A stretch of 63,212 bases of DNA, filler included, from Asterionella formosa (lineage: Eukaryota): NCBI GenBank assembly GCA_002256025.1. It is 24 parts of 24 records of this genome, joined end to end, with 100 filler letters (N's around TTAATTAATTAA, not from the genome) between each part and the next. Parts side by side here need not be neighbours in the genome. Positions count along the whole stretch, not along the records: positions 1 to 18,133 come from NKIB01004162.1; 23 more parts are not named here. The stretch is one strand, 5' to 3'. Shown here one piece after another: positions 307 through 63,212 of the stretch. The first letter of the stretch is position 1; each line of letters opens with the position of its first letter. The notes below the pieces were generated by a model. It searched no databases. It worked only from the letters and a program-made list of their open reading frames with translations, and had not been told where the DNA came from. Made by a program: the position numbers and the translations under genes.

Positions 307-825
307 AATAAGGAGCAGCAGCCATGACAATACCAAGGAAACCATTGGCACCACCACCACTGGTACAGTGGACAGAGCGAGCGTTGGCAAAGAGTTCCTT
401 GCTAAGGCGGGTTACAGTGAAGGCTGTAGGTTTGCCCTCGATCGGCGTCAAGAGCGGATGAGGGAATGGGAAAACAGCGGAAACGATTGGAGTCGTCATG
501 GTGGTAGAAGGCCTGAGAGACAGGGACAGCGAATGGGACAGCGAACGGGCAAGCGGTGCTGGACGGTTGATTGTTGAGACCAGTGCAGGTTTGCACTGTC
601 GACAAGAGCCGCAACGTCGCAGGTGCAGACAAGAGAGAAAGAACAGATATTGTAGTTCTGTTGAGGGGAACCTTGTCATGAATAAAGGTGAACTACAATA
701 TTATGACTATTCTATTGCTGTTCCAAGTACATCGTTGTTAGCACTCACGCATGTACCTAATCTGGTGGCTGCTCCGGTTTGGTTCGTACGGCGCATGTAT
801 GGAGCATCATATGCAGATATTAACA
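307..825 (-). mobile_element. 5' end of diatom CoDi-type Ty1/Copia element (5' LTR, leader, truncated gag)
   Basis: ATG at 499 gives MTTPIVSAVFPFPHPLLTPIEGKPT..KELFANARSVHCTSGGGANGFLG, a CoDi gag N-terminus. The LTR at 659-825 matches the LTR that follows a Copia RNase H at 23680-23846. Confidence 0.85.
659..825 (-). repeat. 167-bp 5' LTR (TGTTA...TCAACA)
   Basis: TGTT/AACA termini; reverse complement of 23680-23846 with only a few substitutions. Confidence 0.9.
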
Positions 826-869
826 ATAGTACCTGTAGCAATCATTTGGGGATGGCAAACCGGTCCTGT

Positions 870-1152
870 AAGAGGTACCAGGTGCTACTTACCGGTAGTA
901 GGAGTACCTGGTCCTGGTACCTAGCGGTAGTACCAGGTACCACACTAAGTATGATTCAACCGGGAGTAGACAATTACTGTATATTGTGTGGGTTTACTGT
1001 ACCTGGTACCTGGTACTCCATGTTTCAATAATATTATGTACTGGTACATATGTGTGTGCAACACTGCTGACTTTGAAGACATCAAAGCCCCATCATTACT
1101 ATGATGTCGTATTCGAGTGCTACCTGGAACCTGGTACCAGGGTACCTGGTAC
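870..1152. repeat. GGTACC / (CCAGGTA)n-(TACCTGG)n heptamer-rich tract
   Basis: For example ACCTGGTACCTGGTACT at 1001 and TACCTGGAACCTGGTACCAGGGTACCTGGTACT at 1121. Confidence 0.8.
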
Positions 1153-1304
1153 TAAGTCAACAAAAGCACTCTTCGATCGAACTCTATTTTGAGCAGTTCG
1201 ACCCTGGATGAGACGAGCACGAAGGGCACAACATACATGGTATGGGTAAATGTTTGATCATTATGGGATTTTTTTAAACGGAGCTCAGCTTTTGCCGGAC
1301 TAGT

Positions 1305-2320
1305 TCCAATTAAATCTGTAAGTGGTCCAAGAACATGAGATCGTCTAGGAAACATGTCTCGATAGTACATAATAGCACCAAGAAATGATCTGACTTGTTT
1401 AAGATTGGTAGGTGAAGACATATTAATCAATGCTCGGACCTTTTTAGACCAAGGTTTCAGTCCATTATTAGGAGTTAACCAATAGCCTAACCAATCTGTC
1501 TCTTGGACTGCCCATTCACACTTATATGGATTAATTGTAAAACCATTTGCCTGTAAACGATGTAAAATGGTGTCCAATAGATGAGGAATGTGATCCGAAA
1601 AATTCATTGAAACACAACCCACATCATCAATATAAATTTCCACATCATCTAAATCACTAAGAATCTGTTCCATAGTTTCTTGTGCAATATCAGATGATTT
1701 TTTCACCCCAATAGGGAGACGTAAATATTTATATAAACCAAATGGAGTGGAAATAACGCACAAATTTTGACTCTCCACATCTAATGCGAAAGTATAGTAT
1801 TGCATAGTAGAAACATCCAATTTGGTGAAAAATACATATCCAGCACGTTTAGTGAGAATAGTTTGTATTCGAGGCAAAGGAGATATCTTGCGATTGATGA
1901 CTTTATTGAGTTCACAAAAATCTGATACCCATCGGACACTTCCATCCTTTTTAGGAATAATAAAAGTGGGAGACGCCCATTTAGAAGCACCACATTTTTG
2001 TAGGACTCCAATATCACACAACCGTTGTAATTCGGTTTTGAAAACTTCTAAATGAATATGAACGATCGGATATGCTCGTTGATGACGAGGGATGGCATTT
2101 GATAATAATTCCAAATGAATATAAGCGATTGGATATGCTCGTTGATGACAAGGGATGGCATTTGATAATAATTCCAAATGTACCTGTTTATGAGGATAAA
2201 CTTTTAATATTCCATCAAATAATGTTTGATATTTAACCAATATAGTTCGCAAACATGAACGTTGCATTGTGTTAAATGCATCTGTTTATTCAGCACTGTA
2301 TCAATATTCACATAATTATA
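1305..2320 (-). pseudogene. Ty3/Gypsy reverse transcriptase fragment
   Basis: WASPTFIIPKKDGSVRWVSDF, FTKLDVS, TPFGLYKYLRLPIG, YIDD and KQVRSFLG motifs. Truncated at both ends; carries a 63-bp in-frame duplication (2068/2131). Confidence 0.92.
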
Positions 2321-2391
2321 TAGCACACTACCTTTCACTACGGACATAAAAGGTTGCACTGGGGGTTGAATTTTTTGCATGTACCACCCTG
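2321..2391 (-). repeat. Dispersed repeat, probable DNA-transposon terminus (CAGGGTGGTACATG, hAT-like)
   Basis: ~70 bp shared with 56514-56585; both end at CACCCTG followed by GTAG. Confidence 0.55.
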
Positions 2392-2408
2392 GTAGTACCT
2401 GGACCAGG

Positions 2409-2588
2409 TGAAGTATCTAACTAGAAGTAGTAGTATTTGTTGAATATATGAGCTAATTAATCTTATGTACAACTTGTTTCCCAAGTTGACATCAAAGTAT
2501 ACAATAAACATAGGTGTTAGTCGAGTTCTGATATATTTGATATAACCCTTTCCCTATATACATCTGTATCGATGTGCAGGATCGCTCA
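2409..2588 (-). repeat. Gypsy 3' LTR
   Basis: Direct repeat of 5066-5245, preceded by a PPT at 2589-2600. Confidence 0.92.
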
Positions 2589-2614
2589 CTCTCCCACACT
2601 TAAGGGAAAACCTT

Positions 2615-4308
2615 TTACCTATGAAAAGGTTTGATACGACGAATATTAATTCGTTCTGTAATATGCATAGTGCGTTGAAAAGTAACTGTACCATTGGCAT
2701 GTACTTGAATAATAGAATAAGGACCTTGTCCACGATCATCCAAAGTACTATGAGCATTATCCAATAGTATTAAAATCTCATCACCCACTTTGTAATCATA
2801 AGATCGACAACGGAAATTAACACGACGTAAATGTTTGTCGATTATCACTTGTCGACATTGATGTATCAATTGTAAATCTGTGATCAAAGAAATATTTAAA
2901 ATCATATCACGTTGAAAAACCCATGCACCTGGTGAAATACGTAATGTACTATGAATAGTACTTCGAGCTGCATATGATGCAGCTGCACAACATGTATCCA
3001 CAATATTTTGGGCTTGAAATTCATTCATTGGAAGATGAGCCTTTAACATAACTCGTAGACTATTACTGATAGATTGATTTAAACGTTCACAGATAGCATT
3101 TGTTTGTGGATTCTTGACTGTAGTAGTCACATCTTTAATTCCATTCAACACTAATATGTGTATGAAAGGAATACCAGTAAATTCACCTCCATGGTCATGT
3201 ACTATACAATGTTCTGGACTGGGATATCTGGCTAACCAATCATCTTTAAATTTCATTGCAATATATTCTGATGGTTTTTATTGATATGTGACATTTCTGC
3301 CAAATTGGTGACCGTATCAATGCAAGTTAGAGCGCGAAATTCAATCGCTTCAGTAGCCACTGCTATCTTCCATGGACCAATTAAGTCTACTGCGACTTCT
3401 GACCATGGTAATAACAATGCATTCCTTGGTGGAAGTTCACCAAAACCAGTACCAGGTAATTTTGTACGTTGACATGCTTCACATATGCTTACAATATGTT
3501 CCACTCTTGCTTTTAATGTATGGTGATCAAAATGTGTAGCAATTGTAGCATTTAATCTTGTCATACCCACATGAGATAACATCTGATGATACCAATTGAT
3601 AACAGGCTCCAATAGTGATGTAGGAATAGCAATACGCCAAGTATCTCCTGGATTCTTCACAAAACATATTAAAAATATATCATGAAAATTGATAGAAGGA
3701 AATTTTAATGGATGTGTTTGTTGATTGAGAATGAGATGTGTTGTTTGATTGAGAATCAATTGTTTACCCAGAAATTTTCTATCATGTCTTGAATTATAAT
3801 CCAGAGGAAATTGAATATTGTCTGCCAAGATTGGATGATTGAGGAAACAGGTAAACAGAGGTTTATCATTCCTTGGTGGAAGTTCACCAAAACCAGTACC
3901 AGGTAATTTTGTACGTTGACATGCTTCACATATGCTTACAATATGTTCCACTCTTGCTTTTAATGTAGGGTGATAAAAATGTGTAGCAATTGTAGCATTT
4001 AATCTTGTCATACCCACATGAGATAACATCTGATGATACCAATTAGTAATAGGATCCAATAATGATGTAGGAATAGCACTGCACCAAGTATCTTCTGGAT
4101 TCTTCACAAAACATTTTAAAAATATATCTTGAAAATTGATAGAGGGAAATTTTAACGGATGTGTTTGTTGATTGAGAATCAATTGTATATCCAGCAATTG
4201 TCTATCATGTATTAAATTATAATCCAGAGGATATTGAAAATTGTCTGTCAAGATTGGATGAGTATTGTGAACCCATGTATTTAACATACGAGCATGTGGA
4301 GCAGACAC
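2615..4308 (-). pseudogene. Gypsy integrase with duplicated H2C2 zinc-binding domain and one frameshift near 3255
   Basis: WYHQMLSHVG..CEACQ occurs twice. D-D-E core in VAVDLIG / HDHGGEF / NAICER; GPY-containing C-terminus; no chromodomain seen. Confidence 0.92.
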
Positions 4309-4379
4309 AGGGTTAGCAGTGTCAGTATGGTTTCTTTACGTAGGATTACTCTGTGAACCGCCTCCATGACCACCAAAAT

Positions 4380-5027
4380 GTCCTCGTCTAACGAAGCTGG
4401 AATGCCCACGTCCATTATGACGACCAGTCATGCGACCTGCTCGACCACCTTGAGTACAAGGATTCTGAAAACAATTGCCCCAAGTATGTGTACCTTCAGG
4501 ATGTACCGGGGGCAAGGGCCACGATGATCATGGTACGTACGACTGGCTTGTAGAGCTTGATGACAAACAGTCGCCTGACGATCCCATGTGCGACCGGCTG
4601 CATCATCAATAGCATGCGCTCTTCCACGACCACTTGGAGTAAAATCATTGTTGTAGAATTGACGACTGACACGCTCGTTTTCTTGAAACATCACACGATT
4701 GCCTTCAGCAATACAAAAACGATTTTGTGTGATTGTTTGAAAACTGTTCTTGGGAAGGTGCTTGTTTCGATCCTTAAACGATTGTTGACCATCGAAGTAA
4801 GCGAGAACCGAACGAATCGATTGGTCTGAAGTTTTAAAAAGCATGATTCAATTCAAACTCTTATTGCCATTCATCGGGCATAGAACGGATAATGATAATC
4901 CGCATATCTTCTTTTGACAATCCAACTTGATCTTCTGGATGAGGCATTAGTTGAAGTAGCCTGTTTAAAGTTTTAATACGAGCTCCGAAATCCATTACCA
5001 GCAGGAACCCTTGAATACATTGCCATG
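4380..5027 (-). pseudogene. Degenerate Gypsy gag
   Basis: Lies downstream of the 5' LTR. Frameshifted CP-VHPEGTHTWGNCFQNP Cys/His knuckle at ~4460-4516; multiple stops. Confidence 0.65.
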
Positions 5028-5065
5028 TTCGTTTTCTTCTAATTGGACTCTTTTTGAATTCAAAG

Positions 5066-5245
5066 TGAAGTATCTAACTAGAAGAAGTAGTATTTGTTGA
5101 ATATATGGGCTAATTAATCTTATGTACAACTTGTTTCCCAAGTGGACATCAAAGTATACAATAGGTGTTACTGGTAGTCGAGTTTTGATATATTTGATTT
5201 AACCCTAACCCTGTTTACATCTGTATCGATGTGCAGGATCGCTCA
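5066..5245 (-). repeat. Gypsy 5' LTR
   Basis: Direct repeat of 2409-2588 with several substitutions and small indels. Confidence 0.92.
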
Positions 5246-5473
5246 CCAGGTACCAGGTACCTGGTACCATATTCTTGACACTGCTATGAACCCATGCCAT
5301 ACGCAAAAAGAAGCATCAATAATAAAATATTTGAAATGGGACAATTCATCATGGGCACTATTGCTCTTCAATCCTGCTCGCATATGTATATATTATATAG
5401 ATAATAAGCACATGGATCGACACATGTGACACCGTCCCGTAGAAGCAAAGAGTAGAACCACAATCTCAAGAAA

Positions 5474-7279
5474 ATGGCTCGATCAAGTAAAGATGCCGTC
5501 GTCTTCCTCGTTGATTCCTCGCCTTCCATGAACGTCCAGTATCCAAGCAATTCGACGACCAGTACTCGGCTCTCTGCGGCCAAGACTGCTCTGGAGGGTA
5601 TGCTGAGCAATTTAATGATTCAAAGTAGCGCTCATGAAGTAGCCGTGATTGTCCTCAAAACGAAAGCAACTGCACATCACCTTGACAACGAAGACTTTCC
5701 GAACCTTTCTGTGCTTGGAAGCAGAACCGTCACGAGACCGACTGTCGAGCTCCTGAGAGAAGTCAGCAAAATTGAATCAACTTTGAAGAAGGAAGATATG
5801 AGAGAAACCCGGGGCGATGTATGCGATGGCATTATTGTGGCAGCCGATGTGTTGCGGAAACGAACGATCGGGAGGAAGTACAACAGGAGGATTGTCATTT
5901 TTACTGACGCAGCCCATGCGCTGGTGATTGATCAAGAACAAATATTACTTGTAATTGACTCTCTAAGGGAAATGGAATGTCAGCTTACAGTCATTGGTCT
6001 CGATTTTACCGAGTCTGCTGAGTTTGAGAGTCCCCTCCCAGTCAAGGAGGAATGCTTCGATGGGGTAGAAACTATGGAAGAAGCCGGAAGCGAAAATGAT
6101 AACGACAACGAGGCCGGAAGCGACATCGAGGATAACGACGACAATGACAATGATCCCTCACCAGAAAAAATTAAGCGTGAGACGGAAAGGTTTCTAGTTG
6201 GGGTGGCTCGACTGACCGGCGGGTCTGTGCAAGCAGCCACAACAATGCAATCGCTCTTGGACTCAACACTTGGAAAGAGGATACCAAAATCGACGCGACG
6301 CAAGTTTGAATTTCACATTGCGCCCGACATCGTTTTGGAGTGTCGATTCTCTTTACTCTTGTCTCGGGCTAATCTTCCATCTCTCAAAAAAGAGGTTATA
6401 TTATTTGACGAAAGCAAGAAGCCAATGAAAAACGGTATAGGCGAACTGATGACAAGTGAAATCAAGATTTCAACCGAGCATTTCGATCCAGACAATCTAG
6501 ATATAGGCCTACCTGAAACATATCGAACAAAAGCCTTCAAGTTTGGGGACGACTTGGTACCGATTGGGACATTTGACTTGGACGCGCTAATGCATCGATC
6601 ACGAGTTTGTATCAAGGTTCTTGGATACGCAGAGCAAGGTGCGATTCCCCTTTCATTGATGATTGGACCACCCTATGGCATATCGGGAGCCACGTCGCAA
6701 CGATCTTGTACAGGAATTTCTGCATTATCTCACGCTATGCACGAGCTGAAGCTAGCTGCAATTTGTACATTTGTCAAGACGAAGGATTCTGATCCGCTTC
6801 TTGGAGTCCTCTTTCCTTGGATTGAAGTTGGAACCAACTACCCCTCTCGTTTAGTCTTCATCCAACTCCCTTTTGCTGGGGATGTACAACGAATTACTAC
6901 AGCTCCACTTGATGAATTTTGTGACGAAGACAAGTTGAAGCTATGTGACGACTTGATTGACGCCATGATGCTTCCTAGTGGAATCCTCGAAAGTACGATG
7001 ATTGCGAATCCATCACTGCGGTCGTTTCGTCGTACTGTAGTGAGAAAAGCCATTGTCCCAGATGCATCAGTTGTGACGGCGCGTCTCGCGCCAATGGAAG
7101 ATCCCATGACTACACCAGCCGACATTCTTGAGCGCGCCAAGCCACTGTTGAGCTCATTTACAAAGATGTTTTCGCTGGAAAGGATAAGTGTTGCTGAAGG
7201 GCGAGGTGAAAACAAAAGAAAGGGCAAGTATTGGGACAACTTCGAAGGCAATGTTTTGGGTCAAGACGAAATCACTTAG
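5474..7279 (+). CDS. KU80: Ku80 (XRCC5), NHEJ DNA end-binding subunit, 601 aa, intronless
   Basis: vWA N-terminus (AVVFLVDSSPSM, GDVCDGIIVAAD, RIVIFTDA); beta-barrel core (KAFKFGDDLVP, LVFIQLPFAGDV); C-terminal arm (IANPSLRSF). Confidence 0.9.
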   Translation: MARSSKDAVVFLVDSSPSMNVQYPSNSTTSTRLSAAKTALEGMLSNLMIQSSAHEVAVIVLKTKATAHHLDNEDFPNLSVLGSRTVTRPTVELLREVSKIESTLKKEDMRETRGDVCDGIIVAADVLRKRTIGRKYNRRIVIFTDAAHALVIDQEQILLVIDSLREMECQLTVIGLDFTESAEFESPLPVKEECFDGVETMEEAGSENDNDNEAGSDIEDNDDNDNDPSPEKIKRETERFLVGVARLTGGSVQAATTMQSLLDSTLGKRIPKSTRRKFEFHIAPDIVLECRFSLLLSRANLPSLKKEVILFDESKKPMKNGIGELMTSEIKISTEHFDPDNLDIGLPETYRTKAFKFGDDLVPIGTFDLDALMHRSRVCIKVLGYAEQGAIPLSLMIGPPYGISGATSQRSCTGISALSHAMHELKLAAICTFVKTKDSDPLLGVLFPWIEVGTNYPSRLVFIQLPFAGDVQRITTAPLDEFCDEDKLKLCDDLIDAMMLPSGILESTMIANPSLRSFRRTVVRKAIVPDASVVTARLAPMEDPMTTPADILERAKPLLSSFTKMFSLERISVAEGRGENKRKGKYWDNFEGNVLGQDEIT

Positions 7280-17053: not shown

Positions 17054-17204
17054 AAGCTGCAATGAAATGAATCATCAGCCACTACATATAATATTTTAGG
17101 CTGTCTAGTTATGATACCAAAAAACATCAGTGCCATTTACATTATCATAAAAAAATCAGATCCGAGTTTGAGTAATAGCATCTCTTGTTTTCAAATATAC
17201 GATT

Positions 17205-17865
17205 ATACAATCCTAAAAATATGATGATTTACTGTCCCGCTGTAGTAGCAGCAGTCATGAACATATGGTGTTCTGTTGCTTGCTTACTACTGCAACTACC
17301 CTCTTTAAATTTTACGATCGTACAATACTAAAACTGTGATGATTTACTGTCCCGCTGTAGTAGCAACAGTCATGAACATATGGTGTTCTGTTGCTTGCTT
17401 ACTACTCCGACTATTCTTTTTCAATTTTATGATCATACGATCCTAAAAATATGATGATTTATTGTCCCACTGCAGTAGCAGCAGTCATGAACATATGGCG
17501 TTTTTTTGCTCGCTTACTACTCCGACTATCCTTTTTCAATTTTATGATCATACTATCCTAAAACTATGATGATTTACTGTCCCTCTGCAGTAGCAACATT
17601 CATGAACATATGGTGTTTTAATGCTCACTAACCACTCCAACTATTCTTTTTCAATTTTATGATCATACAATCCTAAAAATATGATGATTTACTGTCCCGC
17701 TGCAGTAGCAGCAGTCATGAACATATGGTGATCTGTTGCTTGCTCACTACTCCGACTATTCTTTTTCAATTTTATGATCATACGATCCTAAAACTATGAT
17801 GATTTACTGTCCCACTGCAGAAGCAACAGTCATGAACATATGGTGTTCTTTTGCTTGCTTACTAA
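17205..17865. repeat. 115-bp tandem repeat, ~6 copies, with 230-bp dimeric higher-order structure
   Basis: CATGAACATATGG at 17256, 17371, 17486, 17601, 17716 and 17831. Confidence 0.95.
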
Positions 17866-23130: not shown

Positions 23131-23846
23131 GCATTCACTTTCTCAGCTGTAAACCCGTGTCTCCACCTAGCCTCACTACATCCATCCCTCCTCTTAACGG
23201 TGCTATTTACGTCCACTGTCAAATTCTTAAGGAGGTTGTATCCAGTGCTGCTGAGGCCGAATTAGCTGCTTTATTCCACAATGGCAAAGAGGCATATGCT
23301 ATTCGCACCATTCTTGCTGAGCTTGGTCATCCCCAACCTTCTACCCGTATTGTCACCGATAATAGCACTGCCAGTGGCATCGCCAATGATACTGTCCGAC
23401 AAAAACGTTCCAAAGCTATGGATATGCGTTATTACTGGGTACGCGATCGGGTTCGCCAAGGCCAATTTCTTGTATACTGGAAAAAAGGTAGTTTGAATCG
23501 TGCTGATTATTTCACTAAACATCATCCCGCTTCCCATCATATGTTGATGCGCCCGCACTACCTCCATTGCCCTCCATCCCTCCCTAGTCCTCCTAACTAT
23601 TATGCGTGCTTGGCTTCCGATGCTGATAGCATCTCCCTCCCCGCTCCTGTTCTCCTGCCTGCATCTGTTGGTGAGGGTGTGTTAATATCTGCATATGATG
23701 CTCCATACATGCGCCGTACGAACCATACCGGCGCAGCCACCAGATTAGGTACATGCGTGAGTGCTGACAACGATGTACTTGGAACAGCAATAGAATAGTC
23801 ATAATATTGTAGTTCACCTTTATTCACGATAAGGTTCCCCTCAACA
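23131..23846 (+). mobile_element. CoDi-type Copia 3' end: RNase H, PPT and 167-bp 3' LTR (23680-23846)
   Basis: SSAAEAELAALF, TDNSTASG, KRSKAMDMRYYWVRDR and NRADYFTKHH motifs; GGTGAGGGTG precedes TGTTAAT. The pol ORF reads into the LTR (stop at 23798). Confidence 0.93.
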
Positions 23847-24354: not shown

Positions 24355-25478
24355 TCAATCGGAGCATTTGTAGCTGGAGTGCTGGTGCCAACAGGAGCAG
24401 CAGTTGTGGAAACAGGAGCATCAGAAACCGCAACAGGAGTAATAGTTCCAGATCCTGATGGCTGAGATGATGGTGATAGTGTTACTGGAGCTTGAGTAAT
24501 CGGATCCATTGTGGCGACAGGGGCTAATGTAATTGGACTGTTAGTAGCAGGAATCACTGGAGCAGCAGTTGTGGGTACCTCAGTATTTACCACTGGAGGA
24601 TTCACAGGAGTCGCAGAGCTTCCTTGTTCAATCGGAGCATTTGTAGCTGGAGTGCTGGTGCCAACAGGAGCAGCAGTTGCGGAAACAGGAGCATCAGAAA
24701 CCGCAACAGGAGTAATAGTTCCAGATCCTGATGGCTGAGATGAGGGTGATAGTGTTTCTGGAGCTTGAGTAATCGGATCCATTGTGGCGACAGGGGCTAA
24801 TGTAATTGGACTGTTAGTAGCAGGAATCACCGGAGCAGCAGTTGTGGGTACCTCAGTATTTACCACTGGAGGATTCACAGGAGTCGCAGAGCTTCCTTGT
24901 TCAATCGGAGCATTTGTAGCTGGAGTGCTGGTGCCAACAGGAGCAGCATTTGTGGAAACAGGAGCATCAGAAACCGCAACAGGAGTAATAGTTCCAGATC
25001 CTGATGGCTGAGATGAGGGTGATAGTGTTTCTGGAGCTTGAGTAATCGGATCCATTGTGGCGACAGGGGCTAATGTAATTGGACTATTAGTAGCAGGAAT
25101 CACTGGAGCAGCAGTTGTGGGTACCTCAGTATTTACCACTGGAGGATTCACAGGAGTCGCAGAGCTTCCTTGTTCAATCGGAGCATTTGTAGCTGGAGTG
25201 CTGGTGCCAACAGGAGCAGCAGTTGTGGAAACAGGAGCATCAGAAACCGCAACAGGAGTAATAGTTCCAGATCCTGAAATTTGAGATGATGGTGATAGTG
25301 TTACTGGAGCTTGAGTAATCGGATCCATTGTGGCGACAGGGGCTAATGTAATTGGACTGTTAGTAGCAGGAATCACTGGAGCAGCAGTTGTGGGTACCTC
25401 AGTATTTACCACTGGAGGATTCACAGGAGTCGCAGAGCTTCCTTGCTCAATCGGAGCATTTGTAGCTGGAGTGCTGGT
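24355..25478 (-). CDS. Internal fragment of a Pro/Thr/Ser-rich mucin-like protein made of 91-aa (273-bp) tandem repeats
   Basis: Open across the whole contig; ~4.1 near-identical units rich in TxAPV/TxAPI motifs. Confidence 0.85.
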
Positions 25479-34750: not shown

Positions 34751-34809
<59 letters not shown>

Positions 34810-34875
34810 GGGGGGGCGGNNNNNNNNNNTTTTTATTTAAAATTCTGTTACGCCCGGCCCCCCCCCCCCCCCCCT
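34751..34875. other. Poly-G / 10N / poly-C scaffold junction, probable sequencing artefact
   Basis: A ~58-G run and a C run flank a 10-N gap. Confidence 0.75.
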
Positions 34876-36582: not shown

Positions 36583-37703
36583 CTGGTACTCCATCGGTCT
36601 AGTATTAGTTGCATCTACCGTTAAAACTCAAATTTATCTGGGGCCATTACGATTTCTACGATTTTCTCTGGCTCAATTGCCCTATTATGCGGCTAGCTCT
36701 AAACAACGGATTCTTGCATAAAATATATGCATAGAAACATAAAAATTTGCAACTACATTTGAAAAAAAGTTTTTCGGCTTTTTCGGCTTCCACTTTTGTG
36801 CATCTCGAGCGAAATGCAGATGCCTGACCCCCCCTTTTTTCTTGCCACCAGCCACCTCTTCTCTATCAGCTCCCCACATTGAATCAGCCATTATTGTTGA
36901 ATATTGAACGCAGCTTGCAATTATTCACATGCACATGTCTACATCAACATACCTGTAGATATTTTTTTACAGAAATTCTACCAAACATAATAATATGAAC
37001 ATGACATGATAGGAGACGTCCTAAATAGGAGCGAACTATCGGATTTTGTGATGCTGCATTGTATAAGTGTATAAATAAATGTACAATTTTTTGCGTTTTC
37101 GTTGCGTCTGTACCGGTACATTTACAGCAGAGTTTAGTTTCAGCTAGACTTTACAGGGTTCTTACTTAGACTTCCGCTATATCATAAAACTAAAATGGTG
37201 GTTATACACCGAATACCAGTAGTGAGTCAAACACAGTCGTGCGAATGTCGAGCGCTGGCGCAAGGAGAAAATACCTGGTAAGTCGATTTACTATCTAATT
37301 TAGCATGACTGACGAATGCACAACAACAGGACATCTGAATTTTTTTCACTTGCCTGCATTTATTGGTTCTCTAATACTAGCTAGTATAAAATGTGTACCT
37401 ACGATACTCGGAGCACATAATAAAATTGTGCACGGCAGTTGCAGACATCAAAAACTCCCCCGGTGACCTTGCTGTTACAACAAATAAATTTGCCTTTGTT
37501 GAAAACCCTGTCCGGAACCATATGCTTAAGGTAATGAATAGGATCCCAACATTCACTTATTCTCCAGAAGAATTGAGTCTCTCTCATCTGTAAGAAAGTT
37601 TATGAGTAGACTTTCGGTGCGACGGATGAACAACAATTCACGGACTGACGGCTTTCCCTTCGTTCCCCAGGATTGTTAATTTATTTGGTCAGCCTCAGCA
37701 ACA

Positions 37704-40700
37704 ATGCATGATCAGAAACTTGAAGACAAATACGCTGTGAGAGGAAAGGAAGAGATCTTCTGCGACAGAGTTGAATCAATCACAATGGAAGCGAGTTCGT
37801 CGGGCTCCGATACGTCGCAGGCAGATCGGCCAGAGGCCAGCCGTACTTTGAAAGATTCTATGGACGATTCAGAAATTAACCACGAAAGATTAAATGCAAC
37901 CATCCTGCACGCGTCCAGTGTTTTTGGAGGCCAACCAGTAAATTCAGAGCCTGCAAATGGAAACAGGGGATCATATGATAAGAGGCAATCGATTGGGAAC
38001 CCCGCGTCATCTGGAGACGCTCCCGCAACTGCGGCCAAGCGAATGTTCAGTCTAGAACCAACGGCATTGAATGACTTTGCTCATGAAGAAAAGAACAAAT
38101 TTGATAAATCAGCCTTTGTCTTCACGGAACCTTTGACTAAAAAGAAGCACGATGAAGCGGAGCCGATAAAGCAAAAACACATCGACGACGCACAGCACAA
38201 GACGATGGGCATGGGTGGCATGATGCCAACGAGGAATGTTCTTGGTCACACGAAAAGCTCATTCCTTGATTTCGACTCGGAGAGAACTGAATCGTTTCCT
38301 GATAGTGATTCTTGGAACAGTTGCGATAACGGCGATATCTTGATAGACTTTCCGACAAATAGGGAAGAAATCCTTGAGTTAAAGAAAAAGGAGAGAGAAT
38401 CTCGTGTTAGTAGCGTCGATAAAGAAGATCTTAATGTGATCGTAATAGAGGAAAATCAAAGAAAGCCTTGGGCGAGAGTGATACGGCAAATAGAAAATGT
38501 CCAGTCGTCAGACAACGAGGATACCGATGTATCGTATCTTCCATGCCTAGAGAATCAGACGACTAGCAAGCAATCCACGGAAGAACAATTATATATGATT
38601 GGTTTTGATTTTGAAAACTCATATTTTCACGATGGTCGTCATCTTAAGGCAGATTCGATCGATTCTGACATGACGGCCAACGATTCAACAATAACAGAAT
38701 TGAAACATGCTCAGAGGGCACTTGGGTGGCACTATTCCGACGTACGCAGCGAATGTAACGGATCAATCAAACGTAAAGCGAGTGAGAAAAATTCACTAGA
38801 GAGACAATCGTCACCTCTGCAACCGTACAAAAAAGAAACGAATTCGTCTGACAAAGCTGGTTCCTCTCAGTCACTGAAACCAAACAACGAATCTGATTTG
38901 CTGGGCATGTCGAACCAATCACTACAACACCCATATGAAACGCCAAGCTCCTCCAGGTATATCCTGATAAAAGAAATGAACACGTTTGACAACGTTGGCT
39001 CATCTTGTTCACTGCAACCAAAAAATGAATATGAAATCGTGGGCACGCCTATCGAATCACACAGTACGTCGCATTCCGTGGAACAATACCCAATCGACAA
39101 ACAAGGCCCCTCGAGTTCTTTGCTGATACAGGTACCTACGAATTTTTCGACTTGTGCACTATCTGCGACTGTAAAATCTTCGGAAGCAGTTCGAGGCAAC
39201 CCTGTTGGCAGATCAATTTCTCCGAAAACGAGCGAGAGTAGGAGGATTATCAGGAACTTTTCGCAACAAAGTTTCTCAGCTGTCCCATCGGCACTTATCG
39301 CCCCTGACGATTCTAGCCCTCTTGATTTGCAACCGGATGGAAAGAAACGAAATCGCGCTGATATATTTACTGAAAATTCTATCGATGCTCCAGTGCAGGT
39401 TTCAAATAGAATGTTTGATGCTGGATTGGATAATTTCATCGAAATCGCCAGCGAAAACAGGATAGATAAACCACCATCAATGCTTCCATTCACACAGCTA
39501 CAGTCTCAGAAAACTGCCGAAGACGGCGCCTGCGGACAAGTTGATGAGTACCAGGAATGTAACCATGTGGAATCTGAGAATGGACAACTACAACAAGTGA
39601 GCATTGAGAGCAGCGATCAGTTCATTCTTCTGGAAAGGTCAAAACTACCCAATGATCCTGATTTTCTCGAAGTAAAGGAAATAACCGACTTATTTCCGCA
39701 TGCAAAAACAAACTATGAACAGGGAGCTACGCGAAGTAAGGGAAATAGGAATCATAGGCACCGGGGAAGGCTAAGCGAGGGATTCGAGCTTGAGCAAGGC
39801 CATCGTGGTGGAAACAAGGATAGACGGAGACATAACGGCAGACACCGAGAAAACGTTGCTGGAAATGAAGTAGCAACAGGCAAAGAAAATCATCATGAAA
39901 GGAGGCACGGACGAAGACACCGTCATCGGGATGAAATTGCCGAAGGAGTTGACGATAAGAACATACACGAAAAGCGCAGAGGCAGGCGGAGACATCATCA
40001 CAGACACCGAAGCAATATAGACGCAAATAAAGGCGCATCAGGCAAAGAGCATAGCCATGAAAGGAGGCACGGACGACGACACCGTCCTCGGGATGGAAAT
40101 ACCAACGAAGTCGAAGGAGACAATATACAAGAAGAGCACAGAAAGATGAGTATCGATCATCGCCATAGACGAGACGAGACAAGGATCTGGAAAGGAAAAA
40201 ATGAGCTTGCATCGTTTCCAGGAAGAAACGAATGGGGGGACTATAGCCGGGATGAGGAAAAACGCGAAGTAAGTCCTTCCCATATTGTTGAGCATGGCGC
40301 TGCTGAGACCAAAGCGAAGCTTTCCGGAATGATAGTACCCAATGTCATTGTTTCTACTTCTGAGGGAATAGCACCATTCGAAGGAAAAGAGCCCTTAGAC
40401 AAAGAAATCGTTGATTTTGCGAAGTCGAAGAGACCTCTGGATAATTCAATCCTCTCCCAGGGTGGGGCGAACACTCCTTCAGATGATGGGAAAATTCATA
40501 AAACTTCCTCAACGAACAGCAGAATTGAAGTGTTAAGGACAATTATTGGAAAGGACATGCTTAATAGCTGGCGTAGTAGTCTGAGAGGAAACAGCCTTCT
40601 TGTAAGCGGTGGCAAAGGAGAGAGTTTTAATAGTATTTTTGAAAACGACGACGGCGACATCGAAAGTCTGAAGAAGACATCTCGAGTTAAAGATGGCGCA

Positions 40701-42071
40701 TCAACGAAGAATCTAGTCCTACGCATTCAAAGGAAGGTCGGTCCTAATATTTGGGCGATGAAGTGGTACATTTTGGTATTCTTCCTTTTCGTTTTCGTTT
40801 TGACTATTGCCATCGCTCTTTCCACGCGTGACAACAGGAACAGTAGTCCGCCACCAACCATGGCTCCATCGCAATCCCGCACTATAGGATTCAAAGAAGT
40901 GCAAAATTTTTCCGGGACATCCACAAACAATTATGCAGGGGCTTCTGTTTCCTTTTCTGCTGACGGCATGTATGTCGCGATTGGCTACGAGCTTGAGAGC
41001 GGGCGTGTTACAGATAGCGGCGTTGTTCGAATTTTCGAGTCATTCGATACTTCATGGGCGCAATTTGGAACTACCATTGAAGGTCTTGCCACTGGCGACG
41101 CATTCGGATGTGCGCTTTCAATTTCAGACAATGGCCAGCGAATAGCGGTTGGAGCCAAGGACAGCGCCTTGGGAATTGGAGAGGTGAGAGTTTTTGAGTA
41201 TGACATTTCGTCCTCGTCGTGGCAGCAACTAGGAAACACCATTCCAGGTATTGGGTCCAATGGACGTGCAGGTGCAGCTGTTTCACTCTCAGGCAGTGGT
41301 CTGCGTGTAGCTGTTGGTGGTCCACGCTTATCTGACAAAACCGGCTACGTTGCAACTTACGAGCAAAGTGGGAACGCATGGGTACAGCTCGGCTCTGCTT
41401 TGATGGGACAAAGTCCAGGGGAGATGTTTGGCACTTCAATTTCAGTTTCTCAGGCTGGAGACATACTAGCTATCGGGTCATTACGTGCAATGGCAAATGG
41501 GCAGATCAACAGCGGGAAAGTTTCTGTATATCGTTTCAATGCAGTTTCAAGTACGGGACTCTGGACTTTCATCGGATCGGATCTTCCTGGACCAAACTCT
41601 GGTGATCAATTTGGCCAATCTGTTTCGCTCTCATCGGATGGCTCTCGTCTTGCTATTGGAGCAAATGGTCATGACAGAGTCGGATTGAAAAATGTCGGCG
41701 CATGCCGAGTATTTGCATTAATCGATTTCGATTGGACCCAAGTTGGAGGAACTTTGGAAGGCAATCATGATAGAGAGCAAAGCGGCTTTTCTATCGCGTT
41801 GTCTCGGGACGGGAATCATCTGGCCTGTGGTGGTCCCAACAGCTCAGTTGACGGAGAAAAAAGTGGCGTGGTTAGGGTATTCCAGCTCTCATCGATCGAC
41901 GAGAGTTGGCAACAAGTCGGCGAGGATTTGATTGGATCTGAAAAATCTGCGTTTGGATCATCGATCGCGATTTCGCAAGACGGAGGGTATCTAGCTATTG
42001 GCGCCCCAAACTTCACTCTTGGCGATCTTGAACGCGTAGGTATTGCCCTAATTTATAAACGTTTATTGTGA
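37704..42071 (+). CDS. 1455-aa single-pass membrane protein: disordered N-terminus, His/Arg-rich repeats, TM helix, C-terminal FG-GAP beta-propeller
   Basis: TM segment WYILVFFLFVFVLTIAIALS at ~40764-40823, then seven repeats of the form (F/A)G.SVS.S.DG..(L/V)A(I/V)G(A/G)P with WxQxG spacers. Confidence 0.88.
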   Translation: MHDQKLEDKYAVRGKEEIFCDRVESITMEASSSGSDTSQADRPEASRTLKDSMDDSEINHERLNATILHASSVFGGQPVNSEPANGNRGSYDKRQSIGNPASSGDAPATAAKRMFSLEPTALNDFAHEEKNKFDKSAFVFTEPLTKKKHDEAEPIKQKHIDDAQHKTMGMGGMMPTRNVLGHTKSSFLDFDSERTESFPDSDSWNSCDNGDILIDFPTNREEILELKKKERESRVSSVDKEDLNVIVIEENQRKPWARVIRQIENVQSSDNEDTDVSYLPCLENQTTSKQSTEEQLYMIGFDFENSYFHDGRHLKADSIDSDMTANDSTITELKHAQRALGWHYSDVRSECNGSIKRKASEKNSLERQSSPLQPYKKETNSSDKAGSSQSLKPNNESDLLGMSNQSLQHPYETPSSSRYILIKEMNTFDNVGSSCSLQPKNEYEIVGTPIESHSTSHSVEQYPIDKQGPSSSLLIQVPTNFSTCALSATVKSSEAVRGNPVGRSISPKTSESRRIIRNFSQQSFSAVPSALIAPDDSSPLDLQPDGKKRNRADIFTENSIDAPVQVSNRMFDAGLDNFIEIASENRIDKPPSMLPFTQLQSQKTAEDGACGQVDEYQECNHVESENGQLQQVSIESSDQFILLERSKLPNDPDFLEVKEITDLFPHAKTNYEQGATRSKGNRNHRHRGRLSEGFELEQGHRGGNKDRRRHNGRHRENVAGNEVATGKENHHERRHGRRHRHRDEIAEGVDDKNIHEKRRGRRRHHHRHRSNIDANKGASGKEHSHERRHGRRHRPRDGNTNEVEGDNIQEEHRKMSIDHRHRRDETRIWKGKNELASFPGRNEWGDYSRDEEKREVSPSHIVEHGAAETKAKLSGMIVPNVIVSTSEGIAPFEGKEPLDKEIVDFAKSKRPLDNSILSQGGANTPSDDGKIHKTSSTNSRIEVLRTIIGKDMLNSWRSSLRGNSLLVSGGKGESFNSIFENDDGDIESLKKTSRVKDGASTKNLVLRIQRKVGPNIWAMKWYILVFFLFVFVLTIAIALSTRDNRNSSPPPTMAPSQSRTIGFKEVQNFSGTSTNNYAGASVSFSADGMYVAIGYELESGRVTDSGVVRIFESFDTSWAQFGTTIEGLATGDAFGCALSISDNGQRIAVGAKDSALGIGEVRVFEYDISSSSWQQLGNTIPGIGSNGRAGAAVSLSGSGLRVAVGGPRLSDKTGYVATYEQSGNAWVQLGSALMGQSPGEMFGTSISVSQAGDILAIGSLRAMANGQINSGKVSVYRFNAVSSTGLWTFIGSDLPGPNSGDQFGQSVSLSSDGSRLAIGANGHDRVGLKNVGACRVFALIDFDWTQVGGTLEGNHDREQSGFSIALSRDGNHLACGGPNSSVDGEKSGVVRVFQLSSIDESWQQVGEDLIGSEKSAFGSSIAISQDGGYLAIGAPNFTLGDLERVGIALIYKRLL

Positions 42072-43372: not shown

Positions 43373-43469
43373 CTTTGCTTCGTTTTGTAAGCAATACATC
43401 AAATAATGGTGACGATGGCAACAAGAACATTCAGCGGTACCCCCTGGCACTTCGTGTACCGGTACCAGG

Positions 43470-43657
43470 TGAGCGATCTTGCGCATCAATACAGATGTAT
43501 ATAGGGTTAGTGTTATATCATATATGTATCAGAACTCAATAATGAGAGAACTCGACTAACCCTCATTGTATACTTTGGTGTCGACTTGGAGAACGAGTTA
43601 CACACAAGGATTAACAAATAAGCTCATATATTCAACAAATACTACTACTTCTAGTTA
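43470..43657 (+). mobile_element. Gypsy LTR (same family as 2409/5066), cut by contig end
   Basis: Starts TGAGCGATC immediately after GGTACCAGG; near-identical to the reverse complement of 49873-50060. Confidence 0.9.
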
Positions 43658-49872: not shown

Positions 49873-50060
49873 TAACTAGAAGTAGTAGTATTTGTTGAAT
49901 ATATGAGCTTATTTGTTAATCCTTGTGTGTAACTCGTTCTCCAAGTCGACACCAAAGTATACAATGAGGGTTAGTCGAGTTCTCTCATTATTGAGTTCTC
50001 ATACATATATGATATAACACTAACCCTATATACATCTGTATTGATGCGCAAGATCGCTCA
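49873..50060 (-). mobile_element. Gypsy LTR, cut by contig start
   Basis: Ends GATCGCTCA followed by CCAGGTACC; differs from 43470-43657 at one site by eye. Confidence 0.9.
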
Positions 50061-56513: not shown

Positions 56514-56585
56514 TAGTACACTAGCTTTCACTACGGTCTTAAAAGGTTGCACTGGGGGTTGAATTTTTTTTCATGTACCACCCTG
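56514..56585 (-). repeat. Second copy of the hAT-like terminus seen at 2321-2391
   Basis: AAAAGGTTGCACTGGGGGTTGAATTTTTT..CATGTACCACCCTG is shared. Confidence 0.55.
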
Positions 56586-56770
56586 GTAGGTACCGTAAAT
56601 TAGGGTGGGACTGATGTTGAAATCAGTTGGAACCATAAATAATGATAGATACGTCGCAAAAGGGCCACACACCACTCCACTCACCTAAGGTCATTGGCTT
56701 AAAGTGTGACGAGCCATTGCTCTCCTGCTTTCTCGTCTACTGATAGTAGTCTTTCGCTTTGCCAGAAACA

Positions 56771-62970: not shown

Positions 62971-63212
62971 CATCTAAGCCGCGAAATACGCCACTTTTCG
63001 AAATTTCGTCTACGTATGAGTGTTAATTATGTGGTACTTCACATGCATTAATGCCACTCTTCACGTAAAAAAGATTACTTTTAACGGTTTCATGTGAAGT
63101 TTTAACTGTTTCATGTGAAGTTTTCACAATGAATTTTGAACGCGAGACTGAATTAGTTGATGTTTCAAATAATTCATTTGACTTTTCGAAATTTCGTCTA
63201 CGTACGAGTGTT
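62971..63212 (+). mobile_element. CATCTAAG terminus followed by 188-bp tandem units with 21-bp subrepeats
   Basis: ACTTTTCGAAATTTCGTCTACGTA at 62993 and 63181; matches 55838 and the reverse complement of 55-306. Confidence 0.85.

Follow-up and report, generated by a model that had tools for sequence, protein, structure and literature searches.

The window analysed here is a stretch of 63,212 nucleotides, filler included, from the diatom Asterionella formosa (NCBI GenBank assembly GCA_002256025.1); beyond 18 kb, much of it consists of ~1.1-kb pieces with N spacers between them. A Ty3/Gypsy retrotransposon copy lies on the minus strand at 2409-5245, flanked on one side by a reverse transcriptase (RT) fragment of the same family and on the other by a gene of the Ku70/Ku80 family, and two further copies are represented by their long terminal repeats (LTRs). 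Nearly all readable junctions of these copies, and of related loci in metagenomes, share a short palindromic word, CCWGG (W being A or T), in a fixed register. The sequence of the target very probably decides where the element lands, a behaviour seldom seen in Gypsy-type elements. The features of the first copy are as follows, L001 being a related metagenome locus.

1297-2321, minus strand: separate RT fragment of the same Gypsy family, lying beyond the LTRs and matching L001 at 91-94%
2404-2408: left copy, CCAGG, of the target site duplication (TSD), closing a short degenerate array at 2388-2408
2409-5245, minus strand: Gypsy element with direct subfamily-1 LTRs of 180 bp, TGAGCG...TACTTCA, with CCAGG on each side
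2409-2588, minus strand: 3' LTR of subfamily 1, 180 bp
2589-2599, minus strand: polypurine tract
2615-3277, minus strand: integrase core and C-terminal domain, 220 residues, 86% to the L001 pol
3253-4335, minus strand: integrase N-terminal (H2C2) region, a tandem duplicate, frameshifted relative to the core
4255-4997, minus strand: decayed gag region, fused directly to the integrase region
5050-5065, minus strand: primer-binding-site position, with the perfect 12-bp palindrome TTTGAATTCAAA
5066-5245, minus strand: 5' LTR of subfamily 1
5246-5268: right copy of the TSD (5246-5250), opening a three-unit CCWGGTA run

The family is a Ty3/Gypsy (Metaviridae-type) family of a diatom, with at least two LTR subfamilies and many non-autonomous copies. 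Direct TG...CA LTRs, a polypurine tract and a TSD of fixed length were all found, 8 of 11 metagenome loci have this tract ahead of their LTR, and L001 encodes an open pol of 1194 residues in the order protease, RT, RNase H, integrase. Its integrase includes an H2C2 zinc domain and a D,D(35)E core, of which D940, D1003 and E1039 are invariant in 40 of 40 aligned relatives; among the matches listed, the named relatives are proteins of Nitzschia inconspicua and Mayamaea pseudoterrestris at ~52% identity, and GyDi1/GyDi2 of Thalassiosira pseudonana do not appear among these names. L001 unites LTRs of both subfamilies and may be an assembly chimera; both of its ends carry what we take to be sequencing-adapter letters. 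The prokaryote genomes searched yielded one related element (L012/G001; 46%), collapsed and without flanks: this diatom-type Gypsy element, in a bacterial metagenome bin alongside more LTR-type open reading frames (ORFs), is eukaryotic contamination. Viral contigs yielded no relative of the integrase and nothing that matched the 3' end of the LTR; three distant matches stood at 32-35%.

The copy at 2409-5245 had been described in the original prediction as a full element. It is incomplete, however: protease, RT and RNase H are gone, the remnants are gag and integrase, and the whole is a decayed, internally deleted copy. Its 5' and 3' LTRs are 90.6% identical, with 17 partly clustered differences. 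The RT fragment at 1297-2321 is part of what this neighbouring element lacks; it lies in a segment (1121-2408) just beyond the 3' LTR that has GGTACC arrays near both ends, and a junction near 1150 is seen in sequencing run X4 as well. The left flank at 2321-2399 is an 80-bp repeat with a second copy at 56514-56594.

At the primer-binding-site position, the palindrome is not the complement of a tRNA-CCA end and has no initial TGG; a tRNA-complementary site is usual for Gypsy elements, not universal. No complement of 7 or more bases was found inside the LTR, leaving Tf1-type self-priming without support within the element. The palindrome is identical in both LTR subfamilies and occupies the same site in L001, L003, L004, L006 and L008-L011; it may serve in priming or RNA dimerisation.

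Junctions and the duplicated word

The 5' junctions in the window read GGTACCTGG|TGAGCG at 5245 (minus), GGTACCAGG|TGAGCG at 43470 (plus) and GGTACCTGG|TGAGCG at 50060 (minus), and GGTACCWGG precedes the LTR in all three. The letters are those originally claimed, nine flanking bases being common to the three save for the W, and the CCAGG duplication at 2404-2408 and 5246-5250 was likewise found as claimed, in letters and in coordinates. The sole 3' junction in the window reads CCTGG-TCCA rather than CCTGG-TACC. Past ~13 bases the three 5' flanks diverge, with 2-3 of 17 distal positions in common, and the three insertions are therefore separate. Host positions following an oriented GGTACCWGG occur at a rate of 5.7e-4, which gives p ~2e-10 for three of three, a value computed on the same junctions that defined the motif. 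The two subfamily-2 copies appear as follows.

43461-43469, plus strand: target half-site GGTACCAGG
43470-43657, plus strand: LTR of subfamily 2, ended by the contig end
49873-50060, minus strand: LTR of subfamily 2, ended by the contig end
50061-50069, minus strand: target half-site GGTACCTGG

These two LTRs are 76-78% identical to subfamily 1, differ from each other at 1 of 188 positions, and both stop at LTR base 188, at contig breaks. The half-site at 43461-43469 lies 93 bp upstream of the divergent start codon of a class IV aminotransferase gene, and the right TSD and array at 5246 lie 224 bp upstream of the Ku70/Ku80-family start codon. In the metagenome loci L004, L005 and L006, subfamily-2 LTRs are 97-100% alike across samples, with broken reading frames and no RT match; judged from these sequences, subfamily 2 is probably a recently copied non-autonomous lineage.

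Further junctions were sought in a metagenome collection by means of a 23-letter pattern confined to the LTR, which kept the flanks from biasing the result. Seven of the 11 loci found had inner junctions only and were omitted from the tally (six running from tract through LTR to primer site, one ending 1 base past the LTR). The held-out outer junctions read GGTACCTGG|TG in L007, GGTACCAGG|TG in L011, CCTGG-TGCC at the 3' end of L002, and TCAACTTGG|TG in L003, where CTTGG stands one letter off CCTGG; CCWGG was thus found in 3 of 4. L007 and L011 have a single repeat unit on their visible side. The surroundings of L003 are a decayed Copia RT region (RVT_2, E 2.4e-6, under the curated cut-off) with no array nearby, and four of the five core letters are kept despite the array-free site; its CTTGG may be a tolerated site or a later decay. 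In total, 8 junctions of 7 insertions (4 from the window and 4 held out) give CCWGG at 7 of 8 and A-C-Y-W-G-G (Y being C or T) at all eight. By position, A at -6, C at -5, W at -3, G at -2 and G at -1 are each present in 8/8 and C at -4 in 7/8, and the central letter is A in four and T in four. The duplication is of 5 bp, with its register fixed on the palindrome A-CCWGG-T. Distal flanks have 0-8 of 17 positions in common across the junctions, and this slight likeness indicates that the sites are independent. The informative junctions may all come from one species.

Contigs of four sequencing runs were also aligned to 700-5700. The deep run X1 may have supplied the window and is therefore no independent sample; 59 of its contigs reach six bases past the LTR 3' end (to 2403) and then diverge both from the window and from one another (agreement 0.45). 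Divergence exactly at the LTR end is seen in none of the six X1 rows listed, beside which there are 1355 loose-end rows. These contigs support a common register, and give no proportion. Run X4 contains a contig of single-copy depth that covers the Ku gene together with the array in its promoter, reaching 5245 at a cost of 5 differences, and continues with 20 non-LTR letters. This fits a candidate empty site at the Ku promoter and implies that the array is older than the insertion; it is a single contig. Two joints, 1146-5249 and 1016-5247, whose shorter arm has 18-22 letters, are perhaps array-to-array matches, as are 24 loose ends at 5269, and none of these was used. Summed depths across the element are no measure of copy number, and no habitat was deduced from small word shares in freshwater runs.

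The shared flank might alternatively be borne or made by the element, whether as part of the LTR, by segmental duplication or mis-assembly, or because the arrays are themselves piles of TSDs. The composite nature of the locus and the ending of both subfamily-2 LTRs at contig breaks speak for such an origin. Against it, CCWGG is absent, as had been noted originally, from the inner junctions in the window (where the polypurine tract ends in GGGAGAG at 2589 and CTTTGAATTC stands at 5065) and also from those of all 11 metagenome loci; flanks diverge after 9-13 bases, and the junctions come from independent assemblies. Further, neighbouring CCWGG words are spaced 7 bases apart 19 times and 5 bases apart once in 125 gaps; leftover TSDs would be 5 apart, and the arrays are thus not piles of this element's duplications. 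With an array present in the candidate empty allele as well, an element-borne flank seems very improbable.

Host background, arrays and a control LTR family

CCWGG is itself common in the host part of the window, with 121 sites against 63 expected from base composition, a twofold enrichment, whereas CCSGG (S being C or G) is depleted (25 against 45). It takes up 0.21% of host positions (0.28% once long ORFs are set aside) and 1.4% per base near GGTACC words, and the oriented 9-mer has a rate of 0.0075 within 50 bp of such words. Under random insertion, CCWGG at 7 of 8 junctions has p ~1e-17, and 7 of 8 in register within a perfect heptamer array has p 8.5e-6, both values including the junctions that suggested the motif and counting the two ends of one element separately. 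The held-out four alone (3 of 4) give ~1e-7 for random insertion and ~0.01 for a perfect array by hand arithmetic.

A bias of region alone, in which the element chooses little by sequence and simply inserts into, or survives in, open repeat-rich promoter DNA, would draw on just this enrichment of CCWGG and its density near GGTACC words. It does not account for the fixed register: neither the rate of the oriented 9-mer nor the probability within a perfect array favours it, and a control LTR family lies in other registers. This explanation is largely refuted and we give it hardly any weight. The control is an unrelated 167-bp LTR with copies at 659-825 and 23680-23846 (97% identity), from a family that we take to be Copia-like because of motifs in the adjoining ORF; for that ORF, Pfam gave no supporting match and the atlas a weak RVT_2 lead only. 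One of its outer junctions, CA|GTACC, falls within an array; the other reads GGTACTAT|TG. The CCWGG register is thus found in 0 of 2 as against 7 of 8 for the Gypsy family. The control sits near GGTAC motifs yet in other registers, from which it follows that these regions receive other elements too, but that it is the Gypsy family to which the CCWGG register is peculiar. On the minus strand, the bases that follow the LTR at 659 complement part of that same LTR.

Sequence-specific choice of CCWGG, as originally proposed, is thus supported by the held-out junctions, by the common register of the X1 contigs and by the control family. The setting in heptamer arrays holds in part. A genuine heptamer run, of three units, is present only at 5246, whereas 43470 and 50060 each have a single heptamer adjoining an octamer, TACCGGTA. 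The host part of the window contains 22 of these octamers and 39 copies of TACCWGGTA, and no octamer is used as the duplicated core. Perfect GGTA arms flank 5 of 7 CCWGG junctions, compared with a background in the host of 27% of all CCWGG sites and 34% of those outside ORFs (p 0.02-0.05), and arms of GG-N-A or GGA flank 7 of 7 (p 2e-4 to 8e-4, the arms being chosen post hoc). A preference for outer GGTA/TACC arms and arrays is suggested; the notion of the array as a landing pad has the GGTA arms on its side and, against it, L003 in coding DNA without an array and L007 and L011 with one visible unit each.

GGTACC-rich clusters recur in the non-coding DNA of the window. Elsewhere, its two ends (54-306 and 62993-63212) carry the same repeat of 21-bp tandem units in opposite orientation; an ORF of 1463 codons with an FG-GAP repeat occupies 37680-42071; tandem repeats of 273 bp (coding) and 115 bp lie at 24355-25478 and 17188-17864; and a run of 66 G (34751-34816) precedes a gap.

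The integrase and how the site might be read

The original prediction attributed the specificity to an integrase lacking a chromodomain. The lack is real: no chromodomain was detected in L001 (E 0.1) or among the 40 aligned relatives (E 0.01). It is, however, common to all of those relatives rather than peculiar to this family and, being clade-wide, explains nothing about targeting. The integrase in the window (2615-3277), also without a chromodomain, stops directly after the SH3-like domain. The C-terminus lies 30-49 residues past GP(Y/F) in 110 of the 111 relatives in which that motif was found (120 examined), and there is no targeting tail; the protein is compact, made of a zinc-binding domain, the DDE core and an SH3-like C-terminal domain with nothing appended. 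A structural model built from a single sequence was useless (predicted local distance difference test, pLDDT, 37) and was replaced by an alignment-based one (pLDDT 88), which matches the integrases of foamy virus, simian T-lymphotropic virus (STLV) and Ty3. Its alignment with the foamy-virus integrase extends to the last part of the C-terminal domain of the latter, and both stop there. Two foamy-virus residues, Ala188 and Arg329, are described as contacting target bases (PMC4005685); they align with Gly1006 and Asn1149 of L001, the former common to 22 of 40 relatives and the latter in a variable loop.

These comparisons, together with the junctions, make it probable that the integrase itself reads the symmetric ACCWGGT core. 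The two-fold symmetry of integrase multimers leads to the expectation of a symmetric target (PMC3276498), and here a two-fold symmetric complex of integrase and DNA would be centred on the middle A/T and cut 5 bp apart, flanking CCWGG. The inner bases would be read through direct contacts and bending, via surfaces like those with which the foamy-virus integrase contacts its target. In this contact model, which we infer from the structural alignment, the candidate contacts are the Gly three residues past the second catalytic Asp and, in the C-terminal domain, an Asn of the first loop, variable in relatives. The site would be improved by outer GG(T)A arms without depending on them. Host CCWGG would be met mostly as TACCWGGTA units upstream of genes, and the preference, combined with loss of insertions in coding DNA, would leave most copies in promoter repeats. 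The repeats would be the older partner, exploited and not created by the element.

Alternatively, a host protein seated on the GGTACC/CCWGG promoter repeats could hold the integrase at a fixed distance and so produce the register, in the style of TFIIIB with Ty3 or Sap1/Atf1 with Tf1. Such a tether would suit the two window copies found 224 and 93 bp ahead of a start codon and the arms found at all CCWGG junctions, and an unrelated LTR family with one junction in an array suggests that these regions attract or keep insertions. Yet the midpoint of the cut coincides with the symmetry axis of the word that the factor would itself cover, L003 keeps A-C-T-T-G-G in array-free coding DNA, and the integrase has no targeting tail, although a tether could bind elsewhere on the protein. 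We regard tethering as rather improbable. A bolder form of direct reading is that a non-insect LTR integrase recognises a GC-rich palindrome of 7 to 13 bp, GGTACCWGGTACC, tuned to a host promoter repeat; that without tether or chromodomain it is steered upstream of genes genome-wide; and that target words vary among diatom Gypsy families with the C-terminal-domain loop. This fuller proposal is tentative, and we would sooner doubt than adopt it as a whole.

Several points weigh against direct reading of the core. First, seven insertions were read by letter and just one has both ends, and its matching CCAGG at 2404 and 5246 is no proof of a single insertion event: given a CCWGG rule, two unrelated ends would agree in one case out of two, the differences between the LTRs cluster, and the sequence on the left is a repeat beside the RT fragment. 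Second, the rule is not absolute, given CTTGG at 1 of 8 junctions and one X1 contig with the variant site CGAGG. Third, 59 contigs are not 59 loci, and no proportion of off-motif junctions is obtainable from them; the consensus of the X1 loose ends spells the heptamer, but so does the sequence that ordinarily precedes CCWGG in the host, and the consensus therefore adds nothing of its own in favour of array targeting. Fourth, the control family amounts to 2 junctions, and its Copia label comes from ORF motifs and a weak lead. Finally, no residue unique to the family occupies the candidate contact positions among the 40 aligned relatives, and a tether that fixes the register would yield similar junctions.

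Comparison with known systems

No report of a CCWGG-targeting Gypsy element, or of this target in diatoms, was found in the open-access literature searched. A diatom-specific Gypsy cluster with GyDi1 and GyDi2 has been described (PMC2806351); by description, these and related diatom Ty3/Gypsy elements have the same domain order, protease, RT, RNase H and integrase, and no target specificity is stated in the main text of that paper, its supplement on structural features aside. Promoter-adjacent insertion is reported for the Gypsy elements Ty3 (through TFIIIB) and Tf1 (through Sap1/Atf1), with near base-pair precision in Ty3 (PMC7175516). Their targeting acts via host proteins and has no fixed word, whereas here the duplicated bases are fixed and the integrase, which counts that of Ty3 among its structural matches, has no C-terminal extension. 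Tos17, plant LTR elements and vertebrate retroviruses are described as having a symmetric motif around a 5-bp TSD (PMC6911290, PMC4005685); those preferences are weak statistical biases, often outside the TSD, in contrast to the 5 of 6 inner positions invariant across the 8 junctions here. SaTar (PMC5907723) and MuTAnT resemble the present case in using a host simple repeat as target, and Transib/hopper in a target, CCANTGG, that is a palindrome bounded by C and G (PMC3276498), but all are described as cut-and-paste DNA transposons with terminal inverted repeats and not LTR retrotransposons.

The closest precedent is provided by the Drosophila errantiviruses and their two-ORF derivatives (the gypsy, ZAM and Idefix subgroups; 297, 412, Tirant), compared here by their described features. 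Errantivirus LTRs, described as distinctive in their ends, terminate in non-canonical letters, whereas the ends here are canonical TG...CA. Like the present family, errantiviruses are Ty3/Gypsy elements with sequence-specific palindromic targets, which have been tabulated (PMC3276498), and sequence-specific LTR integration has been termed exclusive to them (PMC5408687). Their TSD is given as 4 bp (TATA, ATAT, CGCG), compared with the 5-bp CCWGG and GC-rich 7-bp core palindrome found here; as further differences, the pol proteins scanned gave no match to any envelope family, and the element lives in a diatom. A second case of strict targeting by an LTR element, with another word, another TSD length and a distant host, suggests that integrases can gain specificity more than once. 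A small integrase that aligns end to end with that of foamy virus, and has hundreds of relatives, makes the encoding of target preference testable, and the family offers a possible route by which transposons reshape diatom promoters.

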